DNA from: Candidatus Borrarchaeum weybense
Lineage (GTDB): Archaea; Asgardarchaeota; Sifarchaeia; Borrarchaeales; Borrarchaeaceae
Direction: 5' to 3'
Assembly (NCBI GenBank): GCA_019057385.1
Contig: JAHQJS010000006.1
Span: forward strand, 160,001-224,000
Length of the DNA stretch: 64,000 nt
Part shown: positions 14,958-28,929 of the stretch, one piece after another
Layout of the letters: each line of letters starts with the position of its first letter
Numbering within the stretch: position 1 is the first letter of the stretch
Made by a program: the position numbers and the translations under genes
Notes under the pieces: model-generated
The model's database searches: none
What the model was told of the DNA's origin: nothing
What the model saw: only the letters and a program-made list of their open reading frames with translations

Positions 14958-16307
14958 TCAAACGTGGTGTGCTTTTTGAAGGCTGACAGATGAACATGAA
15001 ATGCAGGGATCAAAAGATCTCACTATAAATTTCGCAGTCTCTTGTACGGTCTCAAGAGATTTATTTTTAGTGAATTCTTTTTGACAAATTCTGTTTAGAA
15101 TTTCGTGAATTGAAAAGGTGTTTAACTCTGTTGGGACATGGATTTTTACATCATTGGCGGTCATGTTTTCATTCACTTTATAGTAGTGAATTAAGGTTCC
15201 TCTAGGTGCTTCCACGGCGCTAAATATGTTATCGTATTTTAACTTCGTAGATGTAACAAAAACAGGTTGTTCTTTAGTTATTTCTGTATTATCGAGGATC
15301 AAAAGCCCTTTATATAAGCATACAAGGATTTCAATCAACCTTAAGACATTCATCATTAAAATGTTTTCATCCCATTTCTGAAAATCCTTAAGGATTTCAT
15401 GAACTTCATAAACCCCATATTCGTTTGTTATGTGATACCTCGCTAGAGGTCCTACCAAAAGACCTCTTCCTCTTTCTTGCGTACTTGATGAAGTGAGGCT
15501 TGAAGTTTTTATTCTATTATCAATGATGAACTTGTCATAATCGTTTACATCAAAAGTTGCCAAAGTTTCTCTGTCTTCATTCGCAATTTTTAAGCGCCCA
15601 TCATAGATACTATATGTTCCATCTCTCTGAAGTCCCATATACAACGGATTTTTCAATTCAAACATTTTTACTGTATCATCAATTTTTTCGATTATTTCCT
15701 GTGCAAAATTAAGGAAAAATTTAGCAATAGCAATACCGCTTTTTAAACTCCTTTTTAAAAGGTTTATTTCTTTTTCTGTTAAATTTTTTGACATTCCGCC
15801 GATAATTATAGAAACAGGTTGAACAGCGCGTCCACCTACAATTTCCGTCACATTTTTCCCGATACTTATGAGCTTTGCAGCCTTTACGAAAAGTTCCGAT
15901 CGATTAAGTATTACATCATTTTCTTGACTTGCGGACGCTAGACTTAATAAATCCGGCAGTGCCATGTACACAAAATGTATCATATGATTAGTAATTGTTT
16001 CTCCTATTAAGACTAATTGTCTTGATAAGGCTGAGGCATACGTGGGTTCTATATCCAAGGCTTTTTCAAAAGCTTTACAAGATGCAACTATGTGTGCCGC
16101 AGAACAGAATCCACAAATCTTCGAAACTAATCTAGGAATCTCTGAGATTTTTTTTCCGATAAGGATTTTCTCAATTCCTCTGTAATCTAGCGTTGAGAAA
16201 TTTACTCTTGAAACTTCATCTTTGTCTTTGTTTACAAAGATCTCTATCTGTCCGTGACCTTCAATTCTGGTTAATGGTTTTATTGTCATTTTTTTCGTTT
16301 TGTTCAC
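14958..16307 (-). CDS. mvhA: Group 3c-like [NiFe]-hydrogenase large subunit (MvhA-like), divergent
   Basis: RIEGHG, ICGFC..AH, GPLAR, EAPRGTLIH, DPCISC. Alternative ATG start at 16289. Confidence 0.85.
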   Translation of the reverse strand: MNKTKKMTIKPLTRIEGHGQIEIFVNKDKDEVSRVNFSTLDYRGIEKILIGKKISEIPRLVSKICGFCSAAHIVASCKAFEKALDIEPTYASALSRQLVLIGETITNHMIHFVYMALPDLLSLASASQENDVILNRSELFVKAAKLISIGKNVTEIVGGRAVQPVSIIIGGMSKNLTEKEINLLKRSLKSGIAIAKFFLNFAQEIIEKIDDTVKMFELKNPLYMGLQRDGTYSIYDGRLKIANEDRETLATFDVNDYDKFIIDNRIKTSSLTSSSTQERGRGLLVGPLARYHITNEYGVYEVHEILKDFQKWDENILMMNVLRLIEILVCLYKGLLILDNTEITKEQPVFVTSTKLKYDNIFSAVEAPRGTLIHYYKVNENMTANDVKIHVPTELNTFSIHEILNRICQKEFTKNKSLETVQETAKFIVRSFDPCISCSSVSLQKAHHV

Positions 16308-17058
16308 CCCTCTTCACAAAGCTTTTTGGACGTGTGAATTTTGAATAAATACCACTAGTTATAATGTCCTCAGAAACTTCAATAGATGAAAAGAAATTGA
16401 CAATATTGGACATAAAATCTGGCACTATAGGCCCCATACACCCTTCGCATGGGATATTTGCCTTTATACACTTTGCTTTGCACCCTGCTCTCGTTATGGG
16501 GCCAAGACAAAGTACATTTTCATGTAAAAAACACTCAAAAGGCATTTTTTCTGGTATTAGTTTATCTACTTTTATTTTGCTTTTAAAACCATTATCGGGC
16601 CTTAATTCGCATTCTGAACATAGATTCTTTAGAGATAATTTAACTCTTTCACCATTCAAAAGTGCCATTAGAGTGTTTCCAAGGAAATCTGTAGGAACAG
16701 GACATCCCGGAATGAATCCATCTATCTCTATTATATCGTTAATTGGTATTGGATCTATTTCATCTGAAAGTGAAGTAATTCCACCTGAGATTGCGCAAGT
16801 ACCAAGGGCAATGACCTTCTTAGCCTTCCTTCTGATTTCTAAAAGTTCCTCTTTCTGTTCCTCTTGAGAAACGCTTCCTTCTATTAAAGCTATGTCACAA
16901 TTGTCGATATTGTCGTTATCTTCAATTAGTGGGAAAATAAAATCAACGGACTCTAAAAGTTCTGGAAAGATATCTAATTCTATAATAGAGGTAAGACACC
17001 CGTTACAGGATGTTAATGAAGTTACTAAGATTTTAGGTTTCACTAAGTTTCTCTCCAT
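16261..17058 (-). CDS. mvhG: [NiFe]-hydrogenase small subunit (MvhG-like)
   Basis: SCNGC, EGSV, GTCA..GG, PGCP, C..C, CLGPITRAGC...C.....PCEGC.GP. Confidence 0.9.
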   Translation of the reverse strand: MERNLVKPKILVTSLTSCNGCLTSIIELDIFPELLESVDFIFPLIEDNDNIDNCDIALIEGSVSQEEQKEELLEIRRKAKKVIALGTCAISGGITSLSDEIDPIPINDIIEIDGFIPGCPVPTDFLGNTLMALLNGERVKLSLKNLCSECELRPDNGFKSKIKVDKLIPEKMPFECFLHENVLCLGPITRAGCKAKCIKANIPCEGCMGPIVPDFMSNIVNFFSSIEVSEDIITSGIYSKFTRPKSFVKRGEQNEKNDNKTINQN

Positions 17059-17097
17059 TTTCGATCGTTCTTATGATTATCAAATTGTAAGTTCGCT

Positions 17098-19683
17098 TTA
17101 TTGCGTTGCGGTGATAGTAGGACTCTCTAATCCAGATAATCTTCTATAAAAATCGTTTACTATGGATGCAAATTTATGACTGTCAATAGCGGAAAGCGAA
17201 ACTATGTGGAGTTTATCCTTGAGCTCGGGAACAAGTTCTTTTAGCAACATTATTCTTTTTTCTGCTTTCGAGAAACCGTCTATATATTTACAAGATTCTT
17301 TCTGACACCCTATTACTAACACTCCGTCGAAACCTTGTTCGAAGGAATAGAGTACGAAGCGCACGTCGACTCTTCCCGTACAGGGCACCTTTACAATCAA
17401 AACGTTTGGCGTGTACTGTATTTTCTTTAGACCTGCGTCATCGGCTGCTGAGTAACCGCACGACTCGCATGCAAAGGCGATAATTTTTGGCGATTGTGAA
17501 AATTTTGAGTATGTTTCAATTGTTTTCATCATTTTGAGCGTAGTATCAATCTGCATTTCAATTGCTTTCGTCGGACAAACTGCAACGCAAATGCCGCATC
17601 CCTTACAACTAAATTGATCGATAATTACGTCTTCCGAATCAATGGAAATAGCCCTGTAGGGACATGAAGTAACGCACAATCCGCAGAATCCACATTTGTT
17701 AGTATCTATTGTGATGCCATGAATTTCTGGTATCAAATGATCTTTTGACAAGAGACCGATAACCTTTATCGCAACATCATTTGTTGCAGAAATCGTGGTT
17801 TTATAATCCGCTGGTCCTCTTACAGAACCACAGCCAAAAATACCCGAAGCTAATGTAATGTCTGACATAAATCCTTTAGAATCTAAACTGAAGTCTAAGG
17901 CCGATTCTCTCAGTTCTTTTAAGCTTTTGTTAGGGACCATACCAATGTTTAGAATAATCATGTCGGTTTCAAAACGATCTGATTCTGTCGCTATATATTT
18001 CCTAGTCCCCTCTACTTCGATTTTAAGGATTTTTGCCCAATGAAAAATCTTATGTTCTGGCGTAAACCACATAACTGGGTTCTGTGGTATTCTACTGATA
18101 TCATAGAATACATGAAGTTCGCATTCTGGTAACCTCTTTTCGATTTCATCAATGTACTTTTTAGTAAGGGTACAACAATAGGTAGAGCATTTATCGGTTC
18201 CCCCGACACACTGGATTATTGCTATACTCTTTGGTGGGTTTCCATCAGAAAGTTTGATCAGTTTACCCCTAGTAGGACCATCAGAAGCTAGAATCCTTTC
18301 AAACTCAGCTGATGTCAACACATCATTTTGAGGGTTATGTTGATATGCTGACAAATCTTGAAATAAGTCAGAACCAATTGCTAGCACCTTTGCCCCTACA
18401 TTGATTCTCAATTTTTTGGTTTTTTCTTCTAAGTTAATGGCGTTCGTCGGACAAGATTCTTCACACAGTCTACAGTTTCTACAATCTTCAATAGATTCTT
18501 CATCTATGACAGAGGCGTAGGGATATGCATTTGAAAAAGGGATATGGATGAACTTTCTTTGCTTAAGTCCGAATTCATATTCATCTGGTTTTTCATTTGG
18601 ACACACATTGGAGCATCTCTTACAACCGGTACAATCATCCACGTCGACAAATCTAGGATGGATTAGCAATTCAATTTCAAAATTACCAACGTGCCCAGAC
18701 ACTCTTTCGACAGTGGTGTTTGTAAAAATCTTCACATTTTTCTCTTTCACGACTCGGCTAATTAACTCTGTAAGATAACATGACGCACACTCTTTAACAT
18801 CATGAATAGTACTCCATCTTGCAATCTTTCCACCTAACGTTGGGGATTTTTCGATGAGGATAACTTCCAAGCCCGCCCTTGCAAATGATAAAGCTAAGCT
18901 TATACCCGCAAGTCCACCTCCAATCACTGCAACACTTTTTTGAGTTCTTATAATTTCTTTTACTTTGATGTCTTCTTGAAGAATAACCCGATTAACAGCG
19001 GCTTCTATTAAGATCTTTGCTTTTTCAAGAGCGATTTGTGGTTCTGAATCATTGACCCAGACACATTGCTCCCTGATATTGGCAAATTCTGTGTTTTTGA
19101 TTACTTCAACTGGGAGAAGTCCTTCGAAGATGTCCGCAACCACGAATGAATGAGTTCTTGGTGAGCATGAAGCAACCACGATGCGATTAATAAAGAACTG
19201 ATCAACCCATTCCTCTTTTATGCCCTCCACTTCTCTTATATCACACAATCTATCAACAATGCGTACCGAAACAACGTTTTTTAGAGAGGCAACATACCTC
19301 TTTAAGTCAGCGACATCTAATACACAAGATATTTCTTCAGCACATAAACAGATGATGACACCTATGCGTAGTATTCCTACTTTGGTGATGTCATCTTTGT
19401 CGATTTGATCAAATTGCGCTGTCCCAGAAAGGATGTTATCATTTAATTTCATGATTTTTAGAGCCAATTTGCCTTCTTCAGTCAACATATAGTTCTTTCC
19501 GCTCTTTTTAATCAAATCTCCCATCTTTTTCAGATGGAAGTTAAGTTTCCCCGACGTTTCCAACTTCAACAGCGGCAGAAAAGCGGAAAAAGACAAAACC
19601 CCTTCTCTCTCAAGGAATTGGAGTATTTTTTGCCTTGTTGGATGTGAAAGAACTGAATATAATTCCATAATTGTTAACTCCAT
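17098..19683 (-). CDS. Winged-helix (ArsR-like) DNA-binding domain fused to HdrA and MvhD
   Basis: aa 1-80 carry LSHPTRQKIL...SGKLNFHLKKM.DLI....Y.LTEEG (wHTH). HdrA motifs follow (CLC, SCSPRTH, NIREQC, GGGLAG, CASC, ferredoxins, EFER, QCVG..CS..CC). The C-terminus is MvhD (CESCGY.AAD, VPCTGRV, GC....C). Confidence 0.9.
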   Translation of the reverse strand: MELTIMELYSVLSHPTRQKILQFLEREGVLSFSAFLPLLKLETSGKLNFHLKKMGDLIKKSGKNYMLTEEGKLALKIMKLNDNILSGTAQFDQIDKDDITKVGILRIGVIICLCAEEISCVLDVADLKRYVASLKNVVSVRIVDRLCDIREVEGIKEEWVDQFFINRIVVASCSPRTHSFVVADIFEGLLPVEVIKNTEFANIREQCVWVNDSEPQIALEKAKILIEAAVNRVILQEDIKVKEIIRTQKSVAVIGGGLAGISLALSFARAGLEVILIEKSPTLGGKIARWSTIHDVKECASCYLTELISRVVKEKNVKIFTNTTVERVSGHVGNFEIELLIHPRFVDVDDCTGCKRCSNVCPNEKPDEYEFGLKQRKFIHIPFSNAYPYASVIDEESIEDCRNCRLCEESCPTNAINLEEKTKKLRINVGAKVLAIGSDLFQDLSAYQHNPQNDVLTSAEFERILASDGPTRGKLIKLSDGNPPKSIAIIQCVGGTDKCSTYCCTLTKKYIDEIEKRLPECELHVFYDISRIPQNPVMWFTPEHKIFHWAKILKIEVEGTRKYIATESDRFETDMIILNIGMVPNKSLKELRESALDFSLDSKGFMSDITLASGIFGCGSVRGPADYKTTISATNDVAIKVIGLLSKDHLIPEIHGITIDTNKCGFCGLCVTSCPYRAISIDSEDVIIDQFSCKGCGICVAVCPTKAIEMQIDTTLKMMKTIETYSKFSQSPKIIAFACESCGYSAADDAGLKKIQYTPNVLIVKVPCTGRVDVRFVLYSFEQGFDGVLVIGCQKESCKYIDGFSKAEKRIMLLKELVPELKDKLHIVSLSAIDSHKFASIVNDFYRRLSGLESPTITATQ

Positions 19684-19800
19684 TTTTCAAAAATCAATAT
19701 TTTTCCTTTTTTCCTGTTACATTCAACTGAGAGTGCAAGATTATAATCGTGAATTTTTTGTTAACTTATAAATAATTATCGATGGTTACTTACAAAAACT

Positions 19801-19915
19801 TTTTTGATAATTTTTGTTTACAAAATAGGAAAAAAAATATTTTCTTTTTCAATAGCTTAGGTTGTCTTTTGGGCGTTTAGATAAGTTGACTTTTTGTCAA
19901 TTTTTGTCGCAAAAA
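19801..19915. promoter_or_regulatory. Repeated TTTTTG-N2-AATTTTTGT motifs and a TTGAC-N5-GTCAA palindrome in a divergent promoter
   Basis: TTTTTGATAATTTTTGTTTACAAAA (19801) and TTTTTGTCAATTTTTGTCGCAAAAA (19891), 90 bp apart. Palindrome at 19886-19900. Confidence 0.45.
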
Positions 19916-20034
19916 TTTAGAAACAAAATTTTTGGACAGAATTATATATTCTTGCATATATGGTTGAAATAACACTGAAAAAATTCAATTGGTGAAAATT
20001 ATCAATTAAAATCACTTAAAACTAATATGGAGGA

Positions 20035-20403
20035 ATGTTAATGGCTCAAATTGAAGTTTCTGAAGAAATCAAAAATAAAACTCCTGAAACAAACAATTTC
20101 GCGTGCCCAAACTGGGATACCTGTACTGTCCACCGATGTGATATCTGCGCTTTTGGTAAAAGCTTGACCTATGAATCGGTAAAAACCGCTAATGAACCAA
20201 ATTTAGCATATTCATGTGAAACATTTGGCCAATATGACGTAAAAAATCTAATCTGTAGCAGATGCCCCCTTAAACTGAATTGTATGGAAGAAAAAGAAAA
20301 AAGGCAAGCCTACCTAAACTCTCTGGCAGAAATGGAATCTTTGGTAGGATTAGTTCAGAAGAAAATCGCAGAATCCAAAGTCAATCTGGGAATCAAACTT
20401 TAA
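20035..20403 (+). CDS. Small Cys-rich (8 Cys) putative metal/Fe-S-binding protein
   Basis: GGAGG SD. Motifs CPNWDTC..HRCDIC and CETFGQYD...ICSRCPLKLNC. Confidence 0.75.
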   Translation: MLMAQIEVSEEIKNKTPETNNFACPNWDTCTVHRCDICAFGKSLTYESVKTANEPNLAYSCETFGQYDVKNLICSRCPLKLNCMEEKEKRQAYLNSLAEMESLVGLVQKKIAESKVNLGIKL

Positions 20404-23976: not shown

Positions 23977-25950
23977 ATGCGCATTGGAGTTTTCGTTTGT
24001 CGTTGAGGTTTCCAAATTGCAGCTTACGTTGATGTTCCAGCATTAACTGAGTACGCAACTACACTTCCGAACGTTGTACTTGCAGAACAAAATCTCTCTC
24101 TTTGCACAACAGCAGGAGCAGACCTTATAAAGGATAAAATCGTGGTTTACAATTTGGACCGCATCGTTGTCGCGTCCTGTACGCCAAAAACACATGAACC
24201 CGTTTTCAGATCTATACTCAGTGATTTGGGGATGAGTCCTAGTTTCCTAGAGTTCGTAAACATCAGAGAACATGTTGCTTCGGTACATATGGAGACCCCA
24301 AAGAAAGCCTTAGAAAAAGCAAAAGAATTATTGCGGGCTGGCGTAGCCCGTGCGGCGGAGCTTGAAGACGTTCCTAGAAGGGTTATCAGTGTAAATCCGA
24401 CTGCCTTAGTGATCGGTGGCGGGATCGGTGGATTAACTGCAGCATTGAATTTAGGAGATGAAGGAATACAGGTTTATCTCGTCGAAAAGGCACCAAGCGT
24501 TGGTGGACACATGGCAATGCTCGATCGCACGTATCCCACTGATGATTGCAGTATCTGAATCTTGGGTCCAGTAATGCTGGAAGTCGATAGACATCCTAAC
24601 ATTGAAGTTATGAGTTATTCTGAAGTGAAAAGCGTTTCAGGCGTGATCGGTGATTTCGCAGTTACAGTTGAACATAGACCAAGATACGTCAATGAGATAA
24701 GGTGTAATGGATGTGGAGTTTGTATGGATGTTTGTCCGGTCTATGCACCTAATGAGTTCGACTGTAGTCTTGGACCAAGAAAAGCGGTTTATAAGCCATT
24801 TGCACAGGCAGTTCCTAATATTGCTACAATCGACATGGATTATTGTATTCGATGTAAACTCTGTGAACGCGTATGCGAATTAGAAGCAATCGATTTTAAT
24901 CAGCACCTCAAGGAAACAGAATTACATGTAGGGACAATTATCGTTGCTACCGGTTTCGATGAATTCAAACCCTATGGTCTATACGGCTATGGTGAATATG
25001 AGAACGTTCTAACGCAAAATGAATTCGAGCGAATATTGGCGCCGAATGGACCTTCTTCAGGCCACTTACGGAGAATTTCTGACGATAAAGAGCCAAAGCG
25101 AATTGCAATAATACAATGTGTTGGTTCTAGAGACCGAACTAAGAATCTTCACTGTTCAGGATACTGTTGCATGGTTGGGATTAAGAACGCAAAACTTGTC
25201 AAACAGCATTATCCTGATGCTGAAATCACAGTATGTTACATGGACATAAGAGCGTCTGGAAAAGATCTTGAAGAATACTACACGCGTTCTAGAAAACATA
25301 AAATAAAATATCTTCGAGGAAAAGTATCAGACGTATCAGAAGATCCAGAAACTAAAAACCTTATTGTACGCGTTGAAGACACGTTAGCAAATCAGATTAG
25401 AACAATCGAAGCGGACCTAGTTATTCTATCAGTAGCCATGGTTGCAGGCGAGGGAACAGAAAAGATAGCCGAAATTCTAAAACTTGAAAGAAGTTCTGAC
25501 GGCTTTATCAAGGAGTTCCATAACCGACTAAATCCTATTGACACCAAGATCCCCGGCATTTATATTGCGGGGGCAGCACAAGGTCCAAGAGCTATAGGTG
25601 ATACAGTCGCCTCGGCAAAGGGTGCAGCGGCAGCAGCATCGTCGCCAATGATAACGCGAAAGTACGAGATGGAACTTATCAAGGCTCTTGTTGACGAAGA
25701 AAGATGTTCAGGTTGTACTCTTTGTGTCAAAACCTGTCCATACGGTGCTATAACTATGGAGGAAGGTGTTGCAAAGGTGGATGAAGTTCTTTGCCGTGGT
25801 TGTGGTACTTGTACTTCGGTATGTCTATCGAACGCGATTGCGCTACGCTATTATAGAGATGAACAAATGGAAGCCTATATTGACGCTTTATTGGCACCAG
25901 AGGAAACCGTGACCGAGAAAGCCGTAGCGGAGGAAAAAGTAGGAGGTTAG
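23977..25950 (+). CDS. hdrA: Heterodisulfide reductase subunit A, selenoprotein with two UGA-Sec (24004-24006, 24556-24558)
   Basis: A single frame reads MRIGVFVCR-TGA-GFQIA...DDCSI-TGA-ILGP and joins ORFs 24142..24558 and 24562..25950. The paralog at 17098 has Cys at both sites (CLC, CASC). The start could be slightly upstream (GTG 23953). Confidence 0.93.
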
Positions 25951-25954
25951 AACA

Positions 25955-26410
25955 ATGGGTCAGAGTAAGAAACAGAAGGTTGATGCAATTGAGTTCGTAC
26001 CTAAAATCGTCACTTTTGCATGTTGGAAGTGAGGATACGAAGCCGCAGACATGGCTGGTGTTACAAGAACCCAGTATCCTGCCAACGTGTTGCCTATAAG
26101 GGTCCCGTGTGCTGGTCGAGTATCTCCTGACCTCATTATACGAGCGTTGAGACGAGCCGATGCTGTGATAGTTGTCGGTTGATACGAAGGCGAATGCGAC
26201 TTTGAGATTGGGAACAAGATTGCAAAAATGCAGATTGACTATCTCAAAGAAATGCTTAAGACCATCGGATTAGACGAACGTCGTATACAAATGAAATGGT
26301 GTTCCGCCGCTGAAGGCGAAAAATTCGCTCTGATGGCGAATGAAGTGACAAACGAAATCTTAGAATTAGGACCTAATCCACTAAAAAACAGACCTGCTGC
26401 AAAAGAATGA
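25955..26410 (+). CDS. mvhD: Hydrogenase [2Fe-2S] delta subunit MvhD/VhuD, selenoprotein with two UGA-Sec (26030-26032, 26180-26182)
   Basis: AGGAGG SD. Frame reads FACWK-TGA-GYEAADMAG...VPCAGRV...VVG-TGA-YEGEC...WCSAAEG. The fused paralog has CESC and GCQKESC at these positions. Confidence 0.93.
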
Positions 26411-27762: not shown

Positions 27763-28929
27763 ATGAAATTGCAAAAAAGCATGATGACTGCTGAAGATAT
27801 AGTAGATTATTGTTATCAATGTGGCAAATGCTCTGGCAAATGCCCACTCGGACATATTATGGAATCGCCTAGAGTTATAATTCAGAAAGTACTTTCAGGA
27901 GACACCGAAGAGGTGATAAAGTCTAAAGATGTTTGGCGATGCCTCACGTGCAATGAATGCACAGTTCCAGAGTGTCCAATGGCTATCAATTTTGCTGAGT
28001 TTATTCGGACAATACGTACCAATGCGGTACGTGAGGGCTACCAAAACTTCAGAGAAACACATCACGAGGTTTTCAAAACAGCAACTAGATTAATGGCAAA
28101 CCCTAATATTAAGCCGAACAAATTATTGAACTGGCCAGAAGATGCTAAAATAAGTAAGGAAGGAGAAACTGCCCTCTTTGTTGGTTGTTTAGAGTTTTTT
28201 GATAACGTCTCTTATTTTGCCGATATGGGAGCTAAGTACGGTGAGATTTCAAAAGATGCTGTGAGAATCCTTAATGAATTAAATATTGTCCCTGTAGTCG
28301 TTGAGGACGAGAAATGTTGTGGACATGACGTTCTATGGTCTGGCGATGAAGAAACTTTTCTGAAATTGGCAGAGTACAATACAACTGCCTTTAAGAAAGC
28401 TAATGTGAAGCGTATTATAACTACTTGCGCAGAATGCTACCGCACATTAGCAGTAGATTATCCGAATTACGTGCCAGATTTTGATTTTGAGGTTATCCAT
28501 CTCTCCGAATTTCTTGCAAAGAAAATTGATGAAGGAAAATTAAAATTCCCCAGACATTTTAACAGAGTGGTAACGTATCACGATCCATGTCGACTAGGAC
28601 GACACATGAGTGTTTACGATGCTCCTAGAAAAGTGATGGAGCGTATCCCAGGTCTTACCTTAAAAGAAATGAAGAAGAATAAAGAGAAAGCGCTCTGTTG
28701 TGGTGTCAGTTCTTGGCTTAATTGTGATGATTATGCAAAAGCAATAAGGATAGACAGATTGACTGATGCACAAAACACAGGAGCACAAATATTAGTGAAT
28801 ACGTGCCCCAAGTGTGAGATGCATTTCAATTGTCTGAGATGTGAAAAAGGTGAGGACAAACCTTTAGATTTTACAAAATTAGAAGTAATGGACTTCGTGA
28901 CGCTTGTCGCAAAGGCTTTAGGTATTTAA
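27763..28929 (+). CDS. hdrD: HdrD-type protein (2[4Fe-4S] plus two CCG domains)
   Basis: CYQCGKCSGKCP, W.CLTC..C, FVGC, CCG, CAEC, YHDPC.LGRH, CCG, CPKC. Confidence 0.85.
   Translation: MKLQKSMMTAEDIVDYCYQCGKCSGKCPLGHIMESPRVIIQKVLSGDTEEVIKSKDVWRCLTCNECTVPECPMAINFAEFIRTIRTNAVREGYQNFRETHHEVFKTATRLMANPNIKPNKLLNWPEDAKISKEGETALFVGCLEFFDNVSYFADMGAKYGEISKDAVRILNELNIVPVVVEDEKCCGHDVLWSGDEETFLKLAEYNTTAFKKANVKRIITTCAECYRTLAVDYPNYVPDFDFEVIHLSEFLAKKIDEGKLKFPRHFNRVVTYHDPCRLGRHMSVYDAPRKVMERIPGLTLKEMKKNKEKALCCGVSSWLNCDDYAKAIRIDRLTDAQNTGAQILVNTCPKCEMHFNCLRCEKGEDKPLDFTKLEVMDFVTLVAKALGI

Follow-up and report, generated by a model that had tools for sequence, protein, structure and literature searches.

Among the described relatives of the locus treated here are the MvhAGD-HdrABC complexes of methanogens, such as that of M. 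thermolithotrophicus (5ODC) and the Mvh-Hdr-Fmd supercomplex of M. marburgensis (PMC13580544). In the 2026 study of the latter, cluster HA4 passes the high-potential electron from flavin adenine dinucleotide (FAD) to HdrB, and cluster HA3 acts as a shuttle, changing position together with the Mvh-Hdr mobile arm as the complex goes from one conformational state to another (PMC13580544). In the Asgard archaeon Candidatus Borrarchaeum weybense, we analyzed a stretch of 64,000 nucleotides (GCA_019057385.1, contig JAHQJS010000006.1, positions 160,001 to 224,000; hereafter, the window) that carries at window positions 14958-19683 three tightly packed open reading frames (ORFs) on the minus strand: a gene in which a winged helix-turn-helix (wHTH) domain of family DUF7347 is fused to HdrA and MvhD, then mvhG, and then an mvhA-like gene. 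The genome, 4.18 Mb in 8 contigs, is nearest to Ca. Borrarchaeum yapensis (96% at the amino acid level), followed by Ca. Sifarchaeum (83%). The locus shares with the methanogen complexes the subunit families, the HdrA ligands including those of HA4, and the adjacent hydrogenase genes, but it differs in the N-terminal wHTH, the fusion of MvhD to the C-terminus of HdrA, the lack of hdrB/C in the operon, and its all-Cys makeup. Moreover, the MvhA of the window has K for R in the L1 motif and no His after the C-terminal CxxC, and the host has no known methanogenesis heterodisulfide. HdrA2 of Methanosarcina acetivorans (NF040770) likewise holds HdrA and a C-terminal MvhD in one chain; however, it has no wHTH and works with HdrB2C2 and not with a hydrogenase of its own.

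On the regulatory side, the locus resembles the trigger enzymes PutA, BirA, and NadR, in which an enzyme carries an N-terminal DNA-binding domain and has an operator in its own promoter, here a candidate one. In PutA, a flavin-redox-switched proline dehydrogenase and repressor, the redox state of the flavin decides DNA occupancy, and the same logic is proposed here. The folds are nevertheless unrelated (that of PutA is ribbon-helix-helix), these proteins have no hydrogenase or Fe-S relay, and their DNA binding has been demonstrated, whereas here it is predicted from sequence. As in the group 2b H2 sensors (HoxBC/HupUV with HoxJ/HoxA), a [NiFe] hydrogenase would be wired to transcription, and most MvhA orthologs also end without a C-terminal extension; but those sensors signal via a histidine kinase and a separate response regulator and include no HdrA or MvhD, whereas here the DNA-binding domain would belong to the hydrogenase complex. 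The ArsR/SmtB-type and archaeal DUF7347 regulators have the fold and sequence family of the wHTH (PagR, CadC, and SmtB at about 2 Å) and a dyad target with half-sites one helical turn apart, but they are small stand-alone dimers, often metal-sensing, whereas here the domain is fused to a redox body of 756 aa.

We lean towards the view that the locus encodes an active cytosolic hydrogenase whose HdrA-MvhD subunit would also repress its own operon, i.e., a trigger enzyme, and the enzyme is predicted to control its own genes, probably via a palindrome found in the promoters of the family. Eukaryotes have no closer known relatives than the Asgard archaea, and models of the syntrophic life of these archaea hinge on H2 metabolism. 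If the subunit does bind its own promoter, Asgard H2 metabolism would gain its first pair of cis-element and regulator, and the complex would be a hydrogenase whose DNA-binding output is built in, in contrast to bacterial H2 sensors, which are coupled to kinases. It would also join PutA as the second flavoenzyme whose DNA binding may be gated by redox state.

The wHTH-HdrA-MvhD fusion and its hydrogenase

The fusion gene is contained in an ORF of 861 aa at 17098-19683 on the minus strand. Its conserved start is M6 of this ORF, at the first residue of the wHTH, and since the pattern M(D/E)(I/L)YSIL coincides with the start in more than 60 orthologs, the window gene most likely begins at the ATG at 19668, which gives a protein of 856 aa. 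The layout of the protein is wHTH (aa 6-86), linker (aa 87-105), HdrA (aa 106-724), and MvhD (aa 731-852). A preliminary description of the window had proposed that the three parts are fused in frame, and this was borne out: the junction, at about 19365-19443, was crossed by contigs of three studies with no insertions, deletions, or joints. When domain architecture and synteny were checked, 178 distinct orthologs were found, all with DUF7347, HdrA, and MvhD, and the order fusion gene-mvhG-mvhA was held in the approximately 65 loci compared, none of which had hdrB/C after the fusion operon. The fusion was present in 123 of the 400 genomes of the phylum, almost always in one copy and in a single ORF of 840-900 aa, and with the contigs and orthologs this excluded a singleton or an artefact. 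The spread was uneven, with 90 of 135 genomes positive in one family and many other families devoid of it. A search of 5.8 billion proteins gave more than 100 clusters with the same three domains at about 50% identity. These come from Asgard metagenome-assembled genomes (MAGs) labelled Loki, Thor, Odin, Hel, Hod, Hermod, Jord, and Kari, and their only names are 'hydrogenase iron-sulfur subunit' or 'FAD-dependent oxidoreductase'. HdrA-MvhD homologs of bacterial or euryarchaeal origin start at about residue 104 of the query and thus are without the wHTH domain. Judged from these sequence comparisons, the fusion is ancient and widespread in Asgard archaea. The architecture is new and combines two kinds that were already known. 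A survey of archaeal fusions records HdrA-HdrA-MvhD fusions and not wHTH-HdrA-MvhD, and our literature search found no paper in which DUF7347/PF24038, or an Asgard HdrA bearing a winged helix, is mentioned.

The winged-helix part is encoded at 19426..19668 on the minus strand, and its assignment stems from an AlphaFold2 (AF2) model, Foldseek comparisons, invariant residues, and the isoelectric point (pI). Pfam DUF7347 matched aa 7-74 with 42.4 bits (cut-off of 27.6), along with weaker HTH_20 and HTH_45 matches. The AF2 model, from a 43-sequence alignment, had a predicted local distance difference test (pLDDT) score of 87.8, falling to 57-67 in the last 20 residues, which are linker, and showed the topology helix-helix-strand-helix-recognition helix-beta hairpin-helix. 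The recognition helix spans aa 44-57 (SGKLNFHLKKMGDL), the beta-hairpin wing aa 58-67, and the C-terminal helix aa 69-86, and residues G45, L47, F49, H50, L57, K60, Y65, L67, and G71, which include positions of both the recognition helix and the wing, were invariant. Forty-nine of the 50 listed Foldseek matches in the PDB were wHTH regulators or DNA-binding proteins; the best-fitting group was the compact ArsR/SmtB fold (PagR with a root mean square deviation of 2.1 Å over 80 residues, and CadC with 2.1 Å over 85), and SmtB, AntR, HlyU, and DNA-bound QsrR were also matched. The E-values of these matches were modest, 3e-3 to 4e-2, as expected for a domain of 80 residues, and the probability was 1.0. 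A profile search of 1.84 billion representatives retrieved 2214 relatives, mostly of 90-330 aa with the domain at the N-terminus, and those sampled had regulator architectures (DUF7347 together with HTH_20/HTH_5; tandem copies occurred in some, and a MalT-like tetratricopeptide region in one). The search for close stand-alone copies of the fusion-type wHTH (below 473 aa) gave only a contig-end fragment. The domain is basic, with a pI of 9.65 (43 orthologs had a median of 9.4), and the remainder of the protein is acidic, with a pI of 5.95; mean column identity was 63% in the wHTH and 67% in the enzyme body, indicating comparable conservation. The linker is acidic, flexible, about 20 residues long, and variable in length among orthologs. 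These data agree with the earlier assignment of the N-terminal domain to regulator-type wHTH domains, with the match above the cut-off, the confident model, the fold matches, and the basic pI all pointing the same way. The domain may bind DNA as a dimer, for which its basic pI and the dyad symmetry of the candidate site are indirect signs. A homodimer prediction with two isolated wHTH domains scored 0.33 against a mark of 0.42, and it was used as evidence neither way.

The HdrA part (aa 106-724) aligned to residues 5-648 of the solved HdrA of M. thermolithotrophicus, 5ODC_A, with an E-value of 1.7e-104, and the MvhD part (aa 731-852) to 5ODC_D with 7.6e-26; the FlpD/MvhD family PF02662 matched aa 734-852 (E 8e-36, 123 bits, cut-off of 22.3). 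The best NCBIfam match was HdrA2 (NF040770) over aa 106-853, with 566 bits, far below the family cut-off of 1100, and the HdrA equivalogs scored 354-425 bits against cut-offs of 1300-1400. All the HdrA features listed in the preliminary description were present: the Cys residues of the N-domain cluster (112, 114, 147, and 173), the FAD motif GGGxAG (G255-G260), EFER at 460-463, the HA4 ligands of the CS..CC motif (C492/C499/C503/C504) followed by Lys, and two 2x[4Fe-4S] ferredoxin domains, one inserted and one C-terminal. The CxxC pair C299/C302 corresponds to C194/C197 of 5ODC, and its second member is the selenocysteine (Sec) site in selenoprotein forms. G255-G260, E460-R463, and C299/C302 were invariant in 25 orthologs, the [2Fe-2S] Cys residues of MvhD (C739/C742/C768/C793/C798) were conserved in at least 98%, and in the 178 distinct orthologs all Fe-S and flavin ligands except those of HA4 were 93-100% conserved. 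For HA4, all four Cys residues were kept in only 11 of the 178, the window protein included, none was kept in 91, and some or all were lost in 94%. This loss fits the absence of hdrB/C. For most members of the family, a role as a heterodisulfide-type bifurcating enzyme is excluded. HA4 is retained in the window copy, whose genome has 16 MvhD domains and about 27 ORFs with CCG domains, and thus a partner encoded elsewhere is possible. The earlier statement that there is no hdrB/C consequently held for the operon and not for the genome, where a CCG-domain gene lies as near as 27763-28929 in the window and 53 CCG-domain matches were counted in those ORFs.

As had been proposed, the two hydrogenase genes directly follow the fusion gene. 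The mvhG-like gene for the [NiFe] small subunit (16261..17058, minus strand, 265 aa) matched Pfam Oxidored_q6 (E 4e-22) and NCBIfam VhuG (126 bits), and was syntenic in about 65 loci. The mvhA-like gene for the large subunit (14958..16307, minus strand, 449 aa, with a likely start at M7, position 16289) was assigned from 5ODC_F and VhuA matches and from its motifs. Its product aligned to 5ODC_F over aa 6-440 (E 5.8e-57), the nearest structural relative by sequence, and gave 194 bits with VhuA against a cut-off of 800, which places it outside the curated family by score; the best matches of the large subunit were group 3 enzymes, i.e., MvhA, the NiFe large subunit 7T2R, and Frh. The L1 motif is KICGFCSAAH, with K for Arg and the His kept, and the four Ni-Fe Cys residues lie in KICGFC and DPCISC. 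The C-terminus is DPCISCSSV with a short tail, Val standing in place of the His after the CxxC; the K, the retained L1 His, the Val, and the short tail are common to the window clade. In most of the 64 orthologous MvhA proteins compared, by contrast, DPCxSCATH is the very end of the chain, without an extension, and Q replaces the L1 His. The conserved operon contains no gene for a kinase or response regulator, and the locus does not belong to group 2b. MvhA-MvhG is predicted to be an active, cytosolic, group-3c-like [NiFe] hydrogenase. A FrhB/FdhB-like gene (about 372-385 aa) stands directly before the fusion on the same strand at L017:4793-5911 and in about 14 other loci, which hints at a further flavin subunit and at the electron acceptor of the complex. 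In published work on cultured Asgard archaea, HdrA-linked NiFe hydrogenase clusters are regarded as metabolic enzymes with high expression (bioRxiv 10.1101/2025.02.26.640444), and published reconstructions handle these clusters as ordinary MvhADG-HdrABC. Most of the 'MvhADG-HdrA' clusters counted in Asgard metabolic reconstructions have neither HdrBC nor HA4, and they are not to be taken by default for bifurcating enzymes of the heterodisulfide type.

The candidate operator

A recurring dyad, TTGAYAA-N6-TTRTCAA, was seen in the 150 nt before the start codons of orthologous operons, and the counts were made with the strict pattern GAYAA-N6-TTRTC. This pattern had 79 matches in 783 kb of loci, about 70 of them upstream of the operon. 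The 63 promoter regions (28 kb) contained 66 matches, against 0.35 expected from dinucleotide shuffles, with at least one match in 50 of the 63, and the other non-coding DNA of the same loci contained 9 in 76 kb. In three Asgard genomes, there were 22-38 matches per genome versus 18-20 for the reversed control, indicating that the palindrome is not a general promoter element; in one genome, 3 of 38 palindromes sit in the fusion-operon promoter. Other perfect palindromes of a Loki-type genome, considered as regulon sites, were intragenic and so likely due to chance.

The median distance from the proximal site to the first start codon downstream is 125 nt, and a TATA box of the TTTATATA type lies 3-5 nt upstream of the site in at least 23 of 50 loci. 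Archaeal repressors block polymerase recruitment at sites just downstream of the TATA box. A second site was found 133-169 bp farther upstream in 11 of the 14 loci that have one. The spacing of 11 bp between the half-site centers corresponds to one helical turn and fits a wHTH that acts as a dimer. When an frhB-like gene comes first in the operon, the palindrome sits upstream of frhB instead, and it stays with the operon in three upstream contexts: divergent 205-aa, 243-aa, Mtd-like, and CDC48 genes; frhB with a divergent Sec-HdrA cluster; and the orf122 and fwdB/D genes of the window clade.

The first of these contexts includes a pair of paralogs of unknown family, about 205 and 243 aa long, and an Mpt_N gene, which resembles methylene-tetrahydromethanopterin dehydrogenase, usually divergent from the operon (L034:3253-5703 on the minus strand and equivalents; L095:2502-5001). 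A separate copy of the palindrome accompanies this cluster, even at a distance of 7.7 kb from the operon. Protein-atlas look-ups of the 205-aa and 243-aa proteins gave nothing above chance level. The 205-aa gene was present in 118 of the 400 genomes, with almost the same phyletic spread as the fusion, and therefore there is no fusion-less control group for the absence of the motif.

The promoter of the window's own clade, which lies in the divergent region between the operon and orf122 (19669..20034) and was studied by a five-way footprint alignment and a second alignment, does not contain the strict pattern. A degenerate form of the family palindrome is found at 19800..19827, reading on the gene strand TTGTAAAC-AAAAA-TTATCAA. 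With a position weight matrix (PWM) built from 65 distinct promoter sites, all of which score at least 12.1, this site scored 10.8; it ranked first in the 64-kb window and only 16th in the 4.18-Mb genome. The block GTAAAC-AAAAA-TTRTC is kept in five members of the clade (loci L006, L079, L086, and L087 among them) and also in Sif-type genomes, in the promoter of their paralogous operon (L007/L089). The same holds for a further block, ATCGA(C/T)AATTATTTAT, at 19765..19783, in which a GAYAA half-site abuts a TATA-like run roughly 100 nt ahead of the start codon. Both the window clade and the Sif-type paralog clade have K or R at the start of the recognition helix where others have Q46, and the coincidence of K/R46 with the clades of degenerate operators is suggestive and nothing more. 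The top matches of the family PWM in the window's own genome (C5:299267, C4:497122, and others) were partly intragenic and had no obvious H2/redox theme. In this clade, the operator is probably something other than the canonical motif. With a degenerate operator and HA4 retained, the window copy may still feed a partner of the HdrBC/HdrD type encoded elsewhere.

Possible readings: trigger enzyme, docking module, or sensor

In the mechanism that we propose, the HdrA dimer would present two wHTH domains together, and the pair would bind the dyad and repress transcription of its own operon and, in many genomes, that of the divergent neighboring redox genes. The wHTH is tethered to the N-terminal domain of HdrA, which carries HA3, the shuttle cluster of the mobile arm. 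Since the wHTH hangs on this domain, the electron load, set by H2 and by the availability of the acceptor, could alter how the two wHTH domains are placed or how accessible they are, and could in this way tie expression to redox state. A further-reaching version, which is possible but in our judgement doubtful, makes the hydrogenase complex itself a transcription factor: H2 turnover at MvhA would load the MvhD-HdrA relay, movement of the HA3 arm would reposition the wHTH pair, and binding to the operator would report the H2/redox state. Under the same version, and no less tentatively, the complex would control its own and neighboring redox operons and would be a one-component H2 sensor-regulator across the H2-dependent Asgard lineages.

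Several points weigh against an autoregulatory hydrogenase. The loci are phylogenetically related, and the 50 promoters with a match are not 50 independent events. The family palindrome is a candidate operator, and its binder could be another, unlinked regulator. In the window's own clade, the degenerate site, with a score below every training site and its low genomic rank, argues only weakly for an operator. The gating of DNA binding by H2 or redox state is plausible, and we purely infer it. Lastly, wHTH domains serve as protein-protein modules too.

The best-surviving alternative, which we still hold to be rather unlikely, starts from this last point: the wHTH would be a structural or protein-docking module that does not bind DNA, and the palindrome would be the site of a separate, trans-acting H2/redox regulator. 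The wHTH fold is often reused for protein contacts, the palindrome copy of the 205-aa/243-aa/Mtd-like cluster 7.7 kb away would suit a regulon-wide factor encoded elsewhere, and the wHTH of the window clade is nearly unchanged despite its degenerate palindrome. Yet a docking module would not account well for a strongly basic domain on an acidic protein whose nearest relatives in sequence and fold are DNA-binding regulators. Also against this alternative, the domain is borne on a flexible linker of variable length and is not packed on the body, and the palindrome tracks the operon through the three upstream contexts.

A second alternative keeps the DNA binding and gives up the enzyme: the locus would be a dedicated one-component H2/redox sensor without net metabolic flux, in which the hydrogenase and HdrA only set the state of the wHTH. 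The fusion is nearly always found in one copy per genome, none of the approximately 65 operons has hdrB/C, and HA4, which feeds HdrB (PMC13580544), is wholly or partly lost in 94% of the orthologs. Most MvhA proteins, moreover, end at DPCxxCxxH with no extension, and most have Q for the L1 His. The missing C-terminal extension is a trait of regulatory hydrogenases, but some catalytic hydrogenases are without it as well. The window protein, on the other hand, keeps HA4, and its MvhA has a tail; all the other Fe-S and FAD ligands show about 100% conservation, among them those of two ferredoxin domains for which a sensor has no obvious use. The FrhB-like subunit co-transcribed in many lineages suggests a real electron acceptor, and HdrA-linked NiFe clusters are reported to be highly expressed in cultured strains. 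The preliminary description had proposed a candidate one-component H2/redox sensor; a sensor rather than an enzyme was not supported, given the conserved ligands outside HA4 and the published treatment of such clusters as metabolic; we deem such a sensor improbable. An error of assembly or gene calling, or a remnant in decay, has practically no likelihood as the origin of the fusion: nothing was found in its favor, and it was ruled out by the independent contigs over the junction, the 178 orthologs that share frame and start, and the strong conservation of the wHTH domain.

Neighboring genes and paralogs

Divergent from the operon lies orf122 (20035..20403, plus strand), which encodes a small protein with 8 Cys residues and no family match, and which is kept beside the operon in the window clade only (the four loci named above). 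The Sec-containing HdrA paralog mentioned in the preliminary description is real: it lies at 23977-25950 on the plus strand, with TGA read through at codons 10 and 194, and has no wHTH. The MvhD domain that follows it (23977-26371 for the whole, plus strand) has two in-frame TGA codons, and its neighbors are FrhB-like and CCG-domain genes and divergent fwdB/D-like genes. The genome is rich in Hdr/Mvh modules, as the domain counts given above illustrate, and has five genes resembling [NiFe] large subunits, including a second Mvh-like cluster at C6:683889-688297.

The window genome has a single copy of the fusion operon, and Sif-type genomes (L006/L007 and L087/L089) have two paralogous wHTH-hdrA-mvhG-mvhA operons with about 58% amino acid identity. 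A full-length ortholog with HA4 was found on a chromosome labelled Bathyarchaeota (L064), and two Asgard-like loci (L038 and L085) were in MAGs labelled as bacterial (Nanopelagicaceae and Deferrimicrobium), which are probably binning errors. A second DUF7347 wHTH of the window genome (L002:598-1743; C7 at about 869317-870462) belongs to a protein of 381 aa with B12-binding_2, B12-binding, and wHTH domains, a one-component-like layout reminiscent of B12-dependent photoregulators.

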